Shown here: positions 2,634 through 48,357 of the stretch, one piece after another | Numbering within the stretch: the stretch's first letter is position 1 | How the letters are laid out: each line of letters opens with the position of its first letter | NCBI GenBank assembly: GCA_947631645.1 | Contig: CANRMD010000006.1 | Location: 1,080-65,079 of the forward strand | Source: Candidatus Gastranaerophilales bacterium | GTDB taxonomy: Bacteria > Cyanobacteriota > Vampirovibrionia > Gastranaerophilales > Gastranaerophilaceae | Direction: 5' to 3' | DNA length: 64,000 bases | Program-made: the position numbers and the translations under genes | Notes under the pieces: model-generated | Told to the model about the DNA's origin: nothing | Seen by the model: the letters and a program-made list of their open reading frames with translations, nothing else | The model's database searches: none

Positions 2634-3905
2634 TTATGCATTTGCACTGATACACAAAGCTTGTTCTTTAAGAAGTTGAGCTTTGTCTGTATGTTCCCAC
2701 GGAACATCAAAATCAGTTCTTCCCAAGTGTCCGTATGCTGCAAGTCTTTGATAGAATTTACCGCCGTTTTTCTTGGGTAAATTTCTTAAATCGAATTGAT
2801 TAATAATAGCGATAGGTCTTAAATCAAAGTTATCTTGAACAAGTTTCATAATATGGTCGTCAGAAATTTTTCCTGTACCGAAAGTGTCAACGAAGATAGA
2901 AACAGGTTGAGCAACACCGATAGCGTAACCGAGTTCAATTTCGCATTTATCAGCTAAACCTGCTGCAACGATGTTTTTAGCAACGTATCTTGCTGCGTAT
3001 GCTGCACTACGGTCAACCTTAGTCGGGTCTTTGCCTGAGAATGCACCACCGCCATGTCTTGAGTAACCGCCGTAAGTATCAACGATTATTTTTCTGCCAG
3101 TTAACCCTGCATCACCTTGCGGTCCGCCTATTACAAATCTTCCTGACGGATTGATTAAATATTTTGTTGTGCTGTCCGGTTTTAATTGTTCTCTTTCAAA
3201 TACATAATCTATAACATATTTAATCATGTCATTTTTAATTGTTTCTTGAATAATCTTATTATCGGATGTACCGTTAATTACGTCATCATGTTGGGTTGAA
3301 ATAACAATAGTATCAATTCTTACGGGTTTATCATTTTCATATTCAACGGTAACTTGAGATTTGCCGTCAGGACGAAGGTAGTTTAAAATTCCTTGTTTTC
3401 TGACTTGAGCAAGTCTGTAAGAAAGTTTGTGAGCCAAGCTTATAGGCAGAGGCATTAATTCGGGTGTTTCATTGCAAGCAAACCCAAACATAATTCCCTG
3501 ATCGCCAGCACCGATATTATTTGTTTCATCGCTTGATACTGAAGCATTATTATCTCTGGCTTCAAAAGCTTTATTTACACCGCCTGCAATATCGGTTGAT
3601 TGTTCATCTATACTTGTTATAACGGCACATGTTTTGCTGTCAAAACCGCCTGATGATTTACCTGTATATCCGATATTTTCTATTGTTGTTCTTACTATGT
3701 GCGGTATATCTACATAGCAAGAAGATGTTATTTCACCCGTTACAAGAACCATACCTGTAGTAACAGATGTTTCTGCAGCTACTCTTGATTTTGAATCTTG
3801 GGTTAGAAATTCATCTAAAATGGCATCTGATATCTGGTCGCAAACTTTGTCGGGATGACCTTCCGTTACAGATTCAGATGTAAATAAGTATTTTTTTGAA
3901 CTCAT
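2634..3905 (-). CDS. metK: S-adenosylmethionine synthetase
   Basis: N-terminal [21 protein letters not shown], plus [12 protein letters not shown] and [19 protein letters not shown] signatures over the full length. Confidence 0.97.
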
Positions 3906-8841: not shown

Positions 8842-9816
8842 TCATTGATTTAATAAAGGTTTTATAAGTTCTCCTACGGCATAATATTCAATATGAAGAT
8901 CAAGCTTTTTGGCTTCTTGTTCAAAATATTGATAAAATTCTATTATCGGATGATTTTTATCAATTTTATTTTTATTATATGTATACCAGTGTGATTCAAT
9001 ATCCATAATAACAGAATTAACATTTGATTCTTTGCTTAAAATAAGCCAATTTTTAATTTGTTCTTTAAATGCATTTGTATATACGCCGAATTCATACGGA
9101 AGAAGTATATATTTTGTTGCAACTCCGTATTTATTATTTTTTTGAGCTTTTGCGTATTTTTTTATATTTTTCCAAACCTCGTTAAATTTATCAACTCTTT
9201 TAATAATTCTGTATGTATTTGTATTAGAACTGTCAGGTGAGATTGTTAATCTTGTATTTTCTTGAGATATGTATTTTTCAATGCTCTTGGAGAATTTGAT
9301 TCCTGAAGAATTAATTTGCACACTTGCAATATTATTTTTATAAAAAAAATCCATAATTTTATCAAATTCTTTTAACAGTGTAGGTTCTCCGCCGCCAAAA
9401 CTTAATCTTCCGTCAAACCTTAAAATATTTTTTTCTTTCATATCTTTAAGAATGGGCATAAAATTATAAGGTTTTATTTTGGGTTTTTTATCTAAATCAC
9501 AATATATACAATTTGAATTGCAATGAGTCCAGTGAGATATTATTATAAAATTAATATAAGGTTCCCAATCATCCCAATCTTTTTCTTGATAATACTGACA
9601 GGTTTTACAAAAAATACTCGGGTTTCCTTCTTTCATATTTTGAAGTTGAGTTTTTCTTTCCCGCATTAGTAAATCCCAGTCTAAAGCTTCCCCGTTATAA
9701 GGCTCTTTAATTTTATAAAACTCTAAAAATCTTATGCCGGAATGACAACAATAATCTATTTGATTTGTCCAAAACATTATCGCATGTCTTAAAAATTCAC
9801 AACTTTTGTATTTCAT
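8842..9816 (-). CDS. Radical SAM protein with N-terminal Cys-rich domain (paralog A)
   Basis: CNSNCIYC (CX3CX2C), GGGEPTLL, and N-terminal C6-x16-C23C24H plus CKTC. Clear paralog of 13871-14872. Confidence 0.75.
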   Translation of the reverse strand: MKYKSCEFLRHAIMFWTNQIDYCCHSGIRFLEFYKIKEPYNGEALDWDLLMRERKTQLQNMKEGNPSIFCKTCQYYQEKDWDDWEPYINFIIISHWTHCNSNCIYCDLDKKPKIKPYNFMPILKDMKEKNILRFDGRLSFGGGEPTLLKEFDKIMDFFYKNNIASVQINSSGIKFSKSIEKYISQENTRLTISPDSSNTNTYRIIKRVDKFNEVWKNIKKYAKAQKNNKYGVATKYILLPYEFGVYTNAFKEQIKNWLILSKESNVNSVIMDIESHWYTYNKNKIDKNHPIIEFYQYFEQEAKKLDLHIEYYAVGELIKPLLNQ

Positions 9817-29216: not shown

Positions 29217-29633
29217 CGTTCGGCTTTCGCCTTGTCCTCGCTTTACCCCTCGCTAACCGGACTTAATTTTTTTATCATATTGATTTTTCGGGCGTGCACA
29301 GACAATCAGCTTCGCTTTCAAATTACTGCGTAATTTTTTCGCTCCGCCTGTCTTTTGCACTTACGGGTTCGTTCAGCTTTGCTTCAACTACACCCTACCG
29401 AAAAATCCTCTCTTGAAATTCCTTTCGCTCGGGGTAGTCGCTCGTTCAGCTTTCGCCTTGTCCTCGCTTTACCCCTCGCTAACCGGACTTAATTTTTTTA
29501 TCATATTGATTTTTCGGGCGTGCACAGACAATCAGCTTCGCTTTCAAATTACTGCGTAATTTTTTCGCTCCGCCTGTCTTTTGCACTTACGGGTTCGTTC
29601 AGCTTTGCTTCAACTACACCCTACCGAAAAATC
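29217..29633. repeat. E3: tandem direct repeat, two ~191-bp GC-rich units with 226-bp period
   Basis: Units 29217-29407 and 29443-29633 are identical by eye except one position (29222 G versus 29448 A). Each unit contains nested inverted repeats (GATTTTTCGG/CCGAAAAATC, GTGCACAGACA/TGTCTTTTGCAC). Confidence 0.9.
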
Positions 29634-40873: not shown

Positions 40874-41332
40874 TTATTCAACGTACATAAGTACTTGCCC
40901 GAATTCAATACTGTCTCCGTTTTGAACACATATTTCGGTTATTTTACCCGAAACATCAGCTTCAATTTCGTTCATAAGTTTCATCGCTTCAATAATACAA
41001 ACGACCTGACCTATTGAAACCGAATCACCGACTTTAACAAACGGAGCATCATCAGGTGACGGAGCCGAATAAAACGTGCCAACCATTGGAGATGTAATCG
41101 GCTTACCTTTATGTTCGGAAGTTTCTTTGTTAGCTTCAGGTTTTGATTGTGGTACGCTTATTACTTGAGATGTAGCAGTAGCAGGTATTACAGCGGGAGT
41201 AACAGCCTGAACAATTTGTTTTTCACGTTTAAAACATACCGCTTTTTCTTCATCTTCTAAAGAAATTTCCGATAAATCATTTTCATATATAATATTTGCT
41301 AATTTTTCTAAGTATTCAAGATCAAATTTCAT
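40874..41332 (-). CDS. accB: Biotin carboxyl carrier protein (canonical EAMKLM motif)
   Basis: C-terminal biotinyl domain with [14 protein letters not shown] and a P/A/T-rich linker. Sits directly downstream of efp. Confidence 0.92.
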
Positions 41333-41345
41333 TTTATAATAATCC

Positions 41346-41903
41346 CTAAACTCTGTCTAAATACTCATTTGTTCTTGTATCAACTCTGATTATTGTTCCT
41401 GTAGTAACGAAGAAAGGAACGTTAACAACAGCACCCGTTTCAAGTGTAGCTGGTTTTGTACCGCCTTGAGCAGTGTTACCCTTTTCAGCAGGAGGTGTAT
41501 CAACAACTTCCAGTTCTACAAAGTTAGGTATATCAATACCTATTATGTTTGTACCGTGAAGAAGTATTGCTACATTCATATTTTCTTTTAAATATTTAAC
41601 TCCGTCACCGATTTTATCAGCACCAACAGAGATTTGTTCATAAGTTTCCAAATCCATCATTACATAATCGTTACCTTCTTTATAAAGGTATTGCATATCT
41701 CTTTTATCTAAAGTAGCTTTAGCAACTTTTTCACCGGCTCTGAATGTTTTTTCAACAACGTTGCCTGTTTCAGCATTTTTTAATTTAGTTCTTACAAATG
41801 CTGCACCTTTACCGGGCTTTACGTGCATAAATTCTACTACATTCCATAGTCCGCCGTCTATATCAAGTGTCAGACCTGTTTTTAAATCATTTACCGAAAT
41901 CAT
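41346..41903 (-). CDS. efp: Elongation factor P
   Basis: [16 protein letters not shown] and full-length EF-P collinearity (185 aa). Confidence 0.96.
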
Positions 41904-42063: not shown

Positions 42064-45000
42064 CTATTTTTGTGTTGTCTTTGCCGCAGAGGGCTGGCAG
42101 AAGAAGTTAGAGAACTTTAACATCCAATTATAGATAAAGGAGTGATGTTCTTCGTTATCAGGCTGCTGAGATTTTGCCAAAGTTTTCGTTTTAATTTTAG
42201 CCGGAGTTTCAACCTTTGCCCCGGCTTCTGTCTTGACGGCAGGTTGTATAACCTCAGTTTTTAGGATAATTTCATTTGTTTGAACTTTTTCGGGAACCTT
42301 TGTTTCAACTTTAACAGGTTTTTCCGCTTTAATCTTTGACGGTTTTTCAGTTTTAACTCTAGCGGGCTTTTCCGCTTTAACCTTCTTAGATTTTTCGGTT
42401 TTAGTTACATTAGAAACGGTTTTAATATTATCATCCGTTTTAACTTTTTCAATTTTTTTACCGTCATCACCTAAAGCAATTCTAAAGCCCATAGTAAAGG
42501 CAATACCGTTTCTGCCGCCGCTTCTTGCCATAGCTTGTAAAAATCCCGTGTATTTATCGTTCCATAGTTTTTGAATACCAAGTCCGTATTCTGCGTATGG
42601 TTTAATGCTTAAAGCTGGAAGCTCAACGTTATTTCCGTATAAATCAGCAACTCTTATTTGTGTCTGCCCCATTACATTATATACAAAACCGCCTGCCAAG
42701 TACGGCTGCCACCCTGATTCTGTATTCTGTATAAATTTAACGTAAGGATGTACTTGAAGTGCGTGCAATGGTTCAGCGTTTATTCGTACGTTTGCTGCGT
42801 TTGTGTAATCAAATGTGTTAATAAAAGTGTAAGATAGTAATAAATTAGGCTGAATAATAAATCTGCCGTCATTAAACTCAAAATTATACCCTGTTTTAGA
42901 AGCAACACCGCCCATAAGCATTGTAAAATCTTCATTTCCGTACATAGTAGAAGTTTCACCTATAGATGAACCGACAGAAGCTGTGAGTGCGGTATAGAAA
43001 TTATTTTTATAGAAAGTATCGGTTATACCGCCTACAATACCGTTTTGATATGTATGGTTGCCCTGGTAGCTTTGGCTTGCCCCTGTATAACCTATATAGC
43101 CTGAATATACGCTGTCCCATCCGTTTTTCAGATGAAATACTTCGGTATCTCCGCCTATGTAAGAACCATATAAAACGGTGCTTGTTTTAGGCCCGTTTTT
43201 AAGCGGGATACTTTCAAACGAAGTATAGGGTCTGAACCAAAGGGCATTTTTATTTAGATGATTATTATATAAAGGAAGATTTCCTTCTGTTATTGCATAT
43301 TTATTTTGATTAAGCATAGCTTTTCTTACAGAAGCAGGTAATGCTGAAAAAGTATCGGCATGTTCAAACGCATAATTGTATGTTTGAACCATAGAAGCAT
43401 AACCGCCCGTTAGCTGAGCAACAGGACTTGCAAGGATAGCTGGGTTAAATCCTATTCTTGTGAATAAAAAATCACCTGTTGAACCTATAGAAGAAGTTTT
43501 TGTTGCTGCACCTGTCAAATAATCAACACCATATTGATAAATAGGGCCGTATGCTTTATTTACGGGTGAGTGAACTGTACCGGCAAAACTTGCGTCAGCA
43601 AAATTAACGGGAGTAACCAAATCAGTGCTGTCTGATAAAACTTTCATATCATTAACATTAATTGTTCCGCCTGAACTTGTTTCATAGCTTTCAGCTTTAA
43701 TTCTTCCCATTACCTTATCTGCAAGATTTACGTCAACGGAATCAATGTTTATAGTTCCGCCTTGTATATCAAATTTTCTGAAATTTAACTGAGTCAAACC
43801 AAAATTATTAATATTTAATGTTCCCGATTGCATATCAAGTGAGTTAGAGTTATTAAGAAATTTAACATCGAAAGCATTTGTTGTTACATCTTTATGTGTA
43901 ATATCGGCATTTAGAATGTTGTTATACAAATTAACTTCGCCTGCTTCATCACCTGTTATAGCAAGATTATACCCCACTTCGCCGTTAATTGTATCAAAGA
44001 AGTTAAATTTACCGCTTTTTTTGGCTGATAAGGTCAGAGTAACATCGTCTGCCTTACCGACATAAATAGCTTCACTTTCGCCGTTTGCTTTATTGTCTGC
44101 AAATTCAGAAACATAACCGTCTGCGGTTAATTTAAGTGATTTTTCGGTATATATAGCACCGCCGTGTGTTCCTGCAGTATTATTATAAAAGCTTGAGTTA
44201 TATATGCCTTTATTATCTGCTTCGCCTATTTTTCCGGCATTATATACTGCACCGCCTAAACTTGAAGCACTGTTGCTTACAAAATCACCGTGAATATTTC
44301 CTGTTTCGCCGGTATTGGCTAATGCACCGCCTTGACCACCTGTCTTACCGTTTGCGGAATTGGAAGAAAAATTACCTTCAATATTGCCTATTTTCGCTCC
44401 TTGGTTATAAATAGCACCGCCTGTTGCATTTTTTTCGCTTGAAATAGCTCTGTTTCCTATAAAATCACCCTTTAAATCACCGATTGTAGAACTTGAATAT
44501 TCTGCTGTATTATAATTGTAAATTGCACCGCCGAATGAATCATTAGCACCTTGTGAGTAGTTCTCAATAAAATCACCTGTTATATTACCGATTGTACTGT
44601 CACGGTTATCAATTGCACCGCCATGAGAGATATCACTTTCGGCAGAAGAATAGTTGCCTATAAAATCACCTGTTATATTACCGATTGATGCACCTGTGTA
44701 ATTATATACAGCACCGCCATGTGCATCCTGGTCTGATTTAGCATAATTTTCAATAAAATTACCTGTTATATTACCTATTTTCGCATCGTTTTCGTTAAAA
44801 ACAGCACCTCCGCTGGCTGTAACTTTTCCTTTCGCATAATTTTCGATAAAATTGCCCGTTATGTCACCTATTGTCCTTTCGCCTTCGGTACCATATCCGT
44901 CATTTTTAATTGCGCCGCCGCTTGCATAACCGTTTGTTGAATAAGCATAATTATAGGCAAAATTTCCTTCTATATCGCCTATTTTAGAATCGTAACTCAT

Positions 45001-45980
45001 AATAGCTCCGCCTAATGCATATCCTTCAGAGTATGTATAATTTCCTATGAAATTACCTGTAATATCACCTATTGTGCCAAAAACATTAGCTATTGCACCG
45101 CCTTCAGACTTGTTGTCACTGTTTGTTTCATTTTTTGTATAATTTCCGATAAAATCGCCTTTTATGCTTTCTATTTCTGCTTTGTTACCGTTAAATATAG
45201 CGCCGCCTCTTACCCAACCATTTATTGAACGGGCATAGTTATAGGCAAAATTTCCTTCTATATTGCCTATTTTAGCCTCCTTATCGATGCCGTCATTTGT
45301 AATGGCTCCGCCGAGTACATAATCACCATTGTCACTATATGCATAATTTCCTATGAAATTACCTTTAATATTACCCATTGTGCTATAAACATTAGCTATT
45401 GCACCGCCTTGAGAACCAGCTTTACTATATGTATAATTTCCTATGAAATCACCTTCAATATTACCTATTGAGCCCCACATATTGGCTATTGCACCGCCTT
45501 GAGCATTACCGTCAGCTTCTACACGGTTTCTTATAAAATCACCTTTAATATTAACATTTTCCATTTGAAATGCATTATTATAAACAGCTCCGCCTTGCTC
45601 TTGGCTGGTGCCATCAAAAGACAAATCTACAAATCCTTGATTTATTTCTTTGGTCTCGTTATTAATTTTTTCTCTTGTGTTCTTGTCTGCATCATAATGC
45701 ACTGTTATTTGAGCCTCTTGCTCATTTTCAGTTTTTTCTAAAGAATAATCCCCATTCTTGTCTTGTACCCATTTAAAATAAGCGGTAGCATCTCCGCCGG
45801 TACCGTAATCGGTTTTTTTCAAATAGGTATCTGGCCCTTCGGCATTTACGGGAAGAGAAGATAAGTTAAACACGGATACAATTGATACGGCAAGTAAAAG
45901 CCCAAAACCTGACCTAACCCCCTTAAATAAGCCTATTTTCGCTCCCCGGGGGGGGGAATTACAGGTTTAATTTTCTTCAT
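42064..45980 (-). CDS. Autotransporter-type outer-membrane protein with Pmp (GGAI / FxxN) repeats, frameshifted at a C9 tract as assembled
   Basis: More than 15 repeats of GGAI.N....IGNI.G.FI.NY, then a C-terminal beta-barrel-like region ending ...NGIAFTMGFRIAL, then a 135-aa K/E/P-rich tail. The RBS+ATG at 45980 is out of frame with the body because of the homopolymer at 45944-45956. The ORF track begins at GTG 45873. Confidence 0.8.
45944..45956 (-). repeat. Homopolymer block C9 followed by G4 on the coding (minus) strand
   Basis: The plus strand reads CCCC (45944-45947) and GGGGGGGGG (45948-45956). It lies between the start codon and the signal-peptide h-region of the autotransporter. Confidence 0.95.
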
Positions 45981-46361
45981 AATCTATCCTCAACTATTTT
46001 AAATTACAAGTAAAAAATTTTATATAAAATAACTATACAGCCAAACTATCTTTTTATACATCTTTCATTATAAACATTTTTTATAATATGTAAAGATTTA
46101 TTTAGTTTTTTATATCTCCGTTAAAAGTTGGATTTTTAACTTATATTTATATAATTACCTCAGATTACAAAAAATTAAACATTATTTTCTTTATGAGGGT
46201 TTAAATACAGTTGATAGCTGAGTGTGGCAAAGAATTATATAATATTGCGTTATACTTCAGCATAATTGGGAATCTTTTCGAGATGAAAGCAGCATATATC
46301 TGGTTGAACAGAGTATTTTGTAATTTTGATAATTGTAACTTATTTTTGTTACATTGATATT

Positions 46362-48000: not shown

Positions 48001-48340
48001 GAAATATTATAAGGTTTGAATGACTTGAAATAATAATGTAATTTTCTTAACGAGGTGAATATCAGAGCAATTCTCTGTTTGAGCCCGATAGGGCGAGTTA
48101 GAATTGCTTTGGTGCCGAGTTAAAGAAAATAATTATTATTGAACGGAATGAAAACCTTATAATATTTCATTATTTGTTTTTCCTTTTTATAATGTATTAA
48201 ATAATAATGTAATATTTATAACGAGGTGAACATCAAAGCAATTCTCTGTTTGAGCCCGATAGGGCGAGTTAGAATTGCTTTGGTGCCGAGTTAAAGAAAA
48301 TAATTATTATTGAACGGAATGAAAACTTTATAATATTTCA
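48001..48340. ncRNA. E4: two tandem copies (171-bp period) of a structured element sharing the E2 core
   Basis: Copy A (48001-48168) is closed by a perfect 17-bp stem GAAATATTATAAGGTTT/AAACCTTATAATATTTC. Its inner helices are AATAATAATGTAATTTTCTTAAC/GTTAAAGAAAATAATTATTATT, CAGAGCAATTCT/AGAATTGCTTTG, and the core CTGTTTGA|gccc-gata-gggc|GAGTT. Copy B (48199-48339) lacks the left outer arm. Strand unresolved. Confidence 0.45.
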
Positions 48341-48357
48341 ATATGTATTATCATTTT

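Follow-up and report, generated by a model that had tools for sequence, protein, structure and literature searches.

The Pmps of chlamydiae are type V autotransporter adhesins that contain GGA(I/L/V) and FxxN repeats and form a large paralogous family (PMC2997323). Poly-G tracts have been linked to phase variation of pmp genes in these organisms, and copies described as 'pseudogenes' represent OFF alleles that are thought to phase-vary (PMC3504296, PMC4514472). Here, we report a similar gene in a stretch of 64,000 nucleotides (hereafter the window) from a Candidatus Gastranaerophilales bacterium. Gastranaerophilales are widespread, uncultured, non-photosynthetic gut relatives of cyanobacteria, and their surface biology is almost unstudied. 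As in chlamydial pmp genes (C. abortus pmp16G and C. pneumoniae), the protein is of the same kind and a G/C homopolymer in the coding region sets the frame. However, in Gastranaerophilales the tract has a constant position within the coding sequence of the signal peptide, whereas it is central in C. abortus pmp16G (PMC3504296). The two systems also differ in phylum, a gut cyanobacterial relative as opposed to Chlamydiae, and in that approximately half of a very large Gastranaerophilales family is tract-bearing. The window gene codes for a Pmp-like type Va autotransporter, and its C9(G4) block is likely to be a slipped-strand contingency switch that was assembled in the OFF state.

Placement of a repeat near the start of the gene has parallels. 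CTCTT repeats in Neisseria opa genes and CT repeats in Helicobacter pylori hop, sab and oipA genes follow the start codon and precede the hydrophobic or cleavage part of the signal peptide, and frame changes in these multigene families abolish export of the surface protein. These systems involve penta- or dinucleotide repeats and small beta-barrels of Proteobacteria and Campylobacterota, whereas a mononucleotide run and a 1300-residue autotransporter are found here. In Campylobacter jejuni, targets of switching are mostly genes for glycosylation and for modification of capsule, LOS or flagella. Gastranaerophilales resemble this organism in that an AT-rich gut genome has rare coding-region G/C runs that would switch surface-related genes, but differ in that the putative targets are autotransporter adhesin-type genes and the position of the tract after the start codon is conserved. 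The C. jejuni runs are approximately 8-13 nt long and turn surface-related genes ON or OFF by frameshifting (PMC3025981, PMC3068675). A general scheme that includes repeats placed as in opa and hop has been published (PMC4514472, Fig. 1D, 'position 4'). In Neisseria meningitidis, G/C homopolymers dominate the strong candidates for phase variation, tracts of at least 8 nt were predominantly variable on deep sequencing, and an association with surface proteins was observed (PMC5084427). Switching was experimentally validated in N. meningitidis, whereas in Gastranaerophilales it is suggested by differences between assemblies.

All features of the window locus are on the minus strand. A Shine-Dalgarno sequence, GAGGA (45991-45987), is followed by a 6-nt spacer, TAGATT, and the start codon ATG (45980-45978), so that the whole element spans 45978..45991. 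The codons after this ATG read AAG AAA ATT AAA CCT GTA ATT CCC CCC CCC GGG GAG CGA AAA TAG. Inside this frame and close to its 5' end, 24 nt past the ATG, begins the proposed slippage site (45944..45956), composed of nine C's (45956-45948) and four G's (45947-45944) and encoding PPP in the N-terminal region. The frame continues through both homopolymers and ends after 15 codons at TAG (45935-45933); thus, as assembled, the region 45933..45980 specifies only the short product MKKIKPVIPPPGERK, as read from the sequence. The long ORF (42064-45873, approximately 3.9 kb, 1269 aa counted from GTG 45873) is in the -1 frame relative to ATG 45980. Its frame is open back to 45966, directly after TAA (45969-45967), and its first canonical start is GTG 45873; no ATG, GTG or TTG is present between the tract and the hydrophobic core of the signal peptide at this locus. 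In these respects our analysis reproduced the coordinates and codons of an earlier, sequence-only reading, in which a strong ribosome-binding site and ATG opened a short frame, the long ORF lay in another frame and that frame extended upstream of GTG 45873 to 45966. The binding site itself was as described there, with GAGGA, a 6-nt spacer and ATG 45980, but it starts at 45991 and not within 45990-45985.

Addition of one C (C10) or removal of two (C7) fuses the ATG with the signal peptide and passenger, as had been proposed, into a single 1305-residue protein that begins with MKKIKPVIPPPRGAKIGLFKGVRSGFGLLLAVSIVSVFNLSSLPVNA and continues with EGPD. Its 47-residue extended signal peptide, encoded at 45841..45980, was delineated by hydropathy and is encoded in frame as the same peptide in a related locus, L064. 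It contains a Lys/Arg-rich N-terminal region, a hydrophobic core, SGFGLLLAVSIVSVF, at residues 24-38 of the fused protein (from hydropathy), and a cleavage-type site, VNA, followed by E. These parts are found in one frame only with C10, C7, G5 or G2. The product that starts at GTG 45873 begins with MFNLSSLPVNA and lacks the hydrophobic core and, since no start codon occurs between the tract and the core, the signal peptide. Therefore, the claim that this copy is OFF as assembled held: C9 leaves the ATG out of frame, and the GTG gives a protein without the core.

The tract is exceptional in its surroundings. The window has a G+C content of 31.4%, and C9 is the only G or C run of 7 nt or longer in its 64 kb. 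For the pattern CCCCCCCCC, 0.03 occurrences per window were expected from dinucleotide-preserving shuffles, with any match in 2 of 100 shuffles. We took approximately 8 nt or more as the slippage-prone length (PMC5084427). A promoter-like site, TTTACA (46094-46089) and TATAAT (46072-46067) separated by 16 nt (46067..46094), matches 11 of 12 consensus positions and is the best such site on the minus strand in the region, its assignment being by consensus match only. It is located approximately 87 nt upstream of ATG 45980. The tract is downstream of this site; thus, the switch would act on translation rather than on transcription. Immediately downstream of the autotransporter gene is the gene pair efp-accB, and Rfam and tRNA scans of the 64-kb window gave no matches.

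The autotransporter nature of the protein had been assumed in the sequence-only reading. Searches with Pfam and NCBIfam models detected no autotransporter beta-domain, and a profile search of the PDB with the protein gave no match. As sequence models were silent on this domain, structure prediction was needed, and the predicted barrel confirmed the assumption. For the last 506 residues ahead of the C-terminal tail, AlphaFold2 predicted a long helix followed by a beta-barrel (pLDDT 86, pTM 0.78), in keeping with classical type Va translocators, in which an alpha-helical linker precedes a C-terminal barrel of about 12 strands. Top Foldseek matches of the barrel model in the PDB were the translocators of EspP, AIDA-I, EstA, BrkA, Hbp and NalP, with E-values of 1e-25 to 1e-17 and TM-scores, normalised by target length, of up to 0.84. 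From these results, the translocator was assigned to 42472..43443, with an alpha-helical linker (approximately 43443-43312) and the beta-barrel (approximately 43248-42472). Upstream, the passenger (43444..45840) is built of Pmp-like repeats of approximately 30 residues, as indicated by motif counts (16 GGA[ILV] and 19 FxxN), by the NCBIfam model TIGR01376 POMP_repeat (18.6 bits, just over the cut-off of 15) and by AlphaFold2, which predicted a regular structure with three short strands per repeat (pLDDT 95.2, pTM 0.94). Foldseek matches of the passenger were weak and non-significant (E-values of 0.4 or higher), and all were beta-helix proteins. The Pfam model Chlam_PMP scored 17.7 bits, below its cut-off of 20.6, and neither the Pmp middle domain nor any other Pfam family was detected. 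Judged by its sequence, the protein is Pmp-like but, by Pfam criteria, falls outside the chlamydial family; by its predicted fold, on which class membership depends, it is a type Va autotransporter with a Pmp-like passenger.

The translation also revealed a Lys/Glu/Pro-rich tail of approximately 135 residues after the barrel (42064..42471, including the stop codon). Accordingly, the polypeptide does not end at the last barrel strand, which is unusual for the type Va class. Similar tails were present in P0003, P0004, P0005, P0009 and P0019 and absent from P0007 and P0008.

The functional start of the window gene can be recognized from L064, the closest 5' cassette, from a sister species, which is 86.5% identical to the window over 498 nt covering the promoter, leader and early coding region. 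L064 uses the same ribosome-binding site and ATG and reads ATG AAG AAA ATT AAA CCT GTA C9 GGA GCG, giving MKKIKPVPPPGARIGLFKGVRSSFGLLLAVSIVSVFNLSSLPVNAEDTG in frame; this in-frame reading identifies the functional ATG and frame. Its tract is C9GG, and the window sequence has an additional ATT as well as GGGG where L064 has GG, so that either homopolymer, C or G, could carry the shift. A Sec signal peptide is in frame in L064 and in P0003/P0004, and at the window locus only with C10 or C7. Orthologs that start at the GTG had been named as an observation that would speak against a switch; instead, L064 starts at the same ATG and continues in frame through C9. We rejected L064 as a positional ortholog, as none of six neighboring window proteins was found there (0/6), and regard it as a related 5' cassette located elsewhere.

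Homologs of the window protein are numerous. A protein search returned 2562 relatives, almost all of them metagenome proteins, and 529 relatives were confirmed by a genome scan. Nearly all of 80 listed loci were in 'Candidatus Gastranaerophilales' MAGs, the closest among them in rabbit-gut ('Lapin') bins, and at least 8 paralogs were found among the loci examined in a complete HiFi genome, OZ006972.1. We analyzed 83 related loci (1.44 Mb, 35% G+C), in which 45 G/C runs of at least 8 nt were detected, 31 of them at the 5' ends of family genes. A tract was counted if a run of at least 9 nt was found within -250 to +300 nt of the opening of the long frame. By this definition, half of the family ORFs with a readable 5' end (31/62) had a G/C run of 9-17 nt at the frame opening, and none of the 62 had a run of 7-8 nt there; two runs in L080, G40 and C17, were set aside as probable sequencing artefacts. 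The order of elements was nearly universal: ribosome-binding site, ATG, 7-25 codons, tract, K/R residues and hydrophobic core, and an AxA-type cleavage site. Most family genes had poly-G, encoding a Gly run, and poly-C, encoding a Pro run, was present in L004, L005 and L064, the nearest relatives of the window gene. In 22 of the 31 tract genes, no start codon occurred between the tract and the hydrophobic core.

Start codons were picked by Shine-Dalgarno match, with L057 added by hand to the in-frame set, and on this basis 7 tract-bearing genes (6 plus L057) were in frame and 23 out of frame; in L008, the tract was placed in the 5' UTR. Among the out-of-frame genes, 15 need a change of -1 or +2 nt and 8 a change of +1 or -2 nt. 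The in-frame share, roughly one quarter, is near the one third (1:2 in frame to out of frame) expected for random phase. In AT-rich DNA, the ORFs of all out-of-frame alleles have remained intact over 2.5-5.5 kb, an argument for continuing selection on these genes. All evidence is from metagenome assemblies, many at approximately 5x coverage, and the assembled homopolymer lengths carry some error.

Differences in tract length were found directly at one family locus. It belongs to the 90% cluster of P0045, which has members of 1840, 1841 and 1813 aa, including one named Candidatus Spyradomonas excrementavium. With identical flanks, this locus had G10 (L094), G12 (L096, L101) and G13 (L093, L095) in different samples, and its in-frame alleles had G11 (L097-L099, 1840 aa) and G12AG (L100, 1841 aa, with one extra residue). 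In addition, two paralogs in OZ006972.1 had identical flanks and different tracts, G10 in L033, which is out of frame, and G12 in L034, which is in frame. Relatives therefore do carry the tract, the comparison that had been suggested as a possible refutation, and the interpretation of the window sequence as a contingency locus gained support from both observations: the tract is a trait of the family and a family member shows length alleles.

In the mechanism that we favor, translation would begin at ATG 45980 behind the strong Shine-Dalgarno site, and the tract would separate a short N-terminal extension from the remaining signal peptide. Slipped-strand mispairing during replication would add or remove C's. 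With C10 (or C7, G5 or G2), the ATG would be in frame with the core, the VNA site, the passenger and the barrel, and the protein would be exported and displayed (ON); with C9, translation would stop after 15 codons and no start codon could supply the signal peptide (OFF). Both replication slippage and the advantage it would bring, evasion of host antibodies, phages or niche pressure, are inferred. With about half of a large paralogous family bearing tracts, a population can express shifting subsets of its surface proteins. Ongoing switching at the window locus itself is suggested by the behavior of its relatives. Exact-pattern scans of JGI metagenome contigs, one with the tract flank and one with the signal-peptide region, gave no matches and thus no further alleles of this locus. 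With tracts of 9-17 nt in the family, C9 is among the shortest, so this locus may switch slowly or no longer.

The latter case leads to an alternative that we consider unlikely, namely a fixed frameshift in a recently dead or dying pseudogene, with the tract as a relic of a once-variable site in a gene that is no longer expressed. C9G4 was identical in the window and in four ENA assemblies that differ by SNPs (ERZ27060504, ERZ27248973, ERZ27248980 and ERZ27248987), that is, there was no change in tract length among five consensus sequences. The protein cluster of the window gene (members of 1269, 1269 and 1252 aa) contained no in-frame allele. Furthermore, L085 has a second frameshift, a 40-nt insertion in the passenger. 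Against this explanation, the window, L083 and L084 all retain an intact 3.9-kb ORF at 31% G+C, where long frames are not kept by chance. The 5' regions of approximately 800 nt are the same in the window and the four assemblies, all with an intact Shine-Dalgarno sequence, ATG and set of signal-peptide codons, and the 23 out-of-frame relatives have intact ORFs as well. Further on, the assemblies differ by 2-26 substitutions, with a mosaic block in the passenger of L089, and a divergence of only 0.1-1% is too little to separate decay from maintenance.

A second alternative, which appears quite improbable, is recoding with no change in DNA, by slippage of RNA polymerase on C9 or by a -1 ribosomal frameshift on C CCC CCC. 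A low level of full-length protein would then be made constitutively from C9, and stalling at Pro-Pro-Pro-Gly might help the frameshift. Transcription is known to slip on long homopolymers, and ribosomes stall on polyproline. The long-ORF frame would be reached with one additional nucleotide in the mRNA, which is equivalent to a -1 slip of the ribosome, and tRNA-Pro can re-pair perfectly on the C run. However, no stable RNA structure was found downstream of the tract (fold z-score of -0.52, no better than shuffled sequences), and the shifts that would restore the frame in the out-of-frame relatives go in opposite directions (15 versus 8). An unstructured mRNA and shifts both ways make a conserved programmed frameshift unlikely, and lengths that vary in DNA fit mutation. 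The OFF state of the proposed switch could nevertheless be leaky through polymerase or ribosome slippage on C9, in addition to the change in tract length.

It is very improbable that C9 is a sequencing or assembly error, with a true tract of C10 and a gene that is simply ON. Errors are common in homopolymers, and coverage of the available assemblies is only approximately 5x, but exactly C9G4 was reproduced in all five, assemblies of the same types resolve G10, G11, G12 and G13 at other loci, and out-of-frame tracts occur in the complete HiFi genome too. Finally, GTG 45873, the start chosen by gene callers both in the ORF call and in P0001, is hardly tenable as the true start, with the ATG, tract and mini-ORF merely as a leader, because its product lacks the core and would not be exported although the protein must reach the outer membrane, no Shine-Dalgarno match is present at 45873, and L064 and P0003/P0004 begin upstream and read through the tract.

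Taken over the family, the evidence leans toward a lineage-wide contingency system in gut Gastranaerophilales (Melainabacteria/Vampirovibrionia), which would act on Pmp-like autotransporters through a tract at a fixed place in the signal peptide. If this is true, no phase-variation system would have been described earlier in the cyanobacterial phylum, the resemblance to chlamydial Pmps would be striking, and an uncultured commensal would have to be under strong pressure from antibodies, phages or its niche. Within the library searched, we found no paper on homopolymer phase variation or on autotransporters in Melainabacteria or Gastranaerophilales. The mechanism is already known from textbooks; what is new is the lineage, from which, together with the size of the family and the likeness to Pmps, the observation derives its value. 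The data suggest random on/off variation of a large adhesin-type repertoire, as in mucosal pathogens, and point to immune or phage pressure.

There are also consequences for annotation. For many family genes, the annotated start is an incorrect internal one, or the gene would score as a pseudogene, and the signal peptide is missing from database proteins such as P0001. A concrete target for future studies is the tract length, as metagenome reads in which it can be counted already exist.

Two additional features of G/C tracts belong to this lineage-wide reading. A conserved AAAACC(C)TTG ('LKTL') element often stands ahead of the tract, and the tract is attached to shuffled 5' modules. In addition, further G tracts adjoin extended -10 boxes of other secreted-protein genes.

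An identical 5′ module extending up to the G/C tract (MSNTVFTTLP.LSNNSLFSE) was found in loci L033, L034 and L060, all of which belong to OZ006972.1, a complete HiFi genome containing paralogs of the autotransporter family. Beyond the tract, the signal peptide and passenger of L060 differed from those of L033 and L034 and matched those of L075, a locus from outside this genome whose 5′ module is unlike that of L060. The fact that one 5′ module is common to L033, L034 and L060, and that the 3′ part of L060 is common to L075, implied that the tract is a junction between shuffled modules. Three Logan contigs from different runs (L086, L087 and L088) had a common end point at window position ~46108, adjoining the −35-like box and ~150 nt 5′ of the window's C tract. 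This position may be an assembly-graph branch point at the start of the shared 5′ cassette.

An AAAACC(C)TTG element was conserved 24-34 nt 5′ of the tract in approximately 12 tract-bearing genes, including those in L010, L026, L051, L057, L059, L067, L070, L071 and L094, compared to a background frequency of 0.03 per 60 nt. The window contains a similar sequence, ATTAAACCTGTA, at 45971-45960. The encoded peptide is LKTL or ENLD, and the element may act either as a DNA/RNA signal or at the protein level, as a motif within the N-terminal extension.

Several G tracts were preceded by the usual leader and followed by G+C-richer sequence instead of a signal peptide (L017 1006-1016, L026 9496-9504, L029 7142-7153, L051 7522-7532 and L070 14872-14883). 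Translation 3′ of these tracts gave strings such as NVILSECEESQ or PLPRRGE; this sequence may stem from the insertion of repeat elements or from the decay of 5′ cassettes. In L032, two gene copies located 3.8 kb apart (at 9719 and 13493) were identical in the 60-nt leader, the G11 tract, the first 50 encoded residues and the length of the downstream ORF (3426 nt); they represent a tandem duplication or else a repeat created by the assembly. The G40, G9 and C17 runs clustered in L080 (2432-2558) are probably sequencing artefacts.

G tracts were also detected at other genes. G9-G10 tracts on the minus strand of L049 (16783-16792 and 20634-20642) and of L064, the sister-species copy of the 5′ cassette (3296-3304), were directly followed by extended −10-like boxes, e.g., G10-taaaagTGatATAATgac. 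The genes 3′ of these tracts code for small signal-peptide proteins with no kinship to the autotransporter family. These look like promoter-spacer tracts, which, if true, would place phase variation at the level of transcription.

Strain differences were observed in the passenger in other assemblies of the window locus. L085 contained a 40-nt insertion at ~2558-2597 (corresponding to window ~45598), with CAAGGCGGA as a direct repeat on either side. The inserted sequence was an additional QGGFVFNSETDNG-like unit with one surplus T, resulting in a frameshift. A dense block of substitutions with a 3-nt insertion was present in L089 (window 44059-43960), a sequence pattern that suggests gene conversion.

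Whereas classical autotransporters end with the last barrel strand, the window protein continues into a Lys/Glu/Pro-rich tail of ~135 residues (42064-42471, minus strand). This tail was present in relatives P0003, P0004, P0005, P0009 and P0019 and absent in P0007 and P0008. Directly 3′ of the autotransporter gene, on the same strand, are efp, coding for elongation factor P, and accB (40874-41903). EF-P relieves ribosome stalling at polyproline, and the C tract of the neighboring autotransporter gene encodes Pro-Pro-Pro; this proximity is probably a coincidence.

The window also contains two intergenic tandem direct repeats, one of 226 nt x 1.8 (29217-29633, 99% identical) and one of 171 nt x 1.9 (48028-48344, 95% identical), each unit of the latter enclosing the inverted repeat CAAAGCAATTCT...AGAATTGCTTTG.
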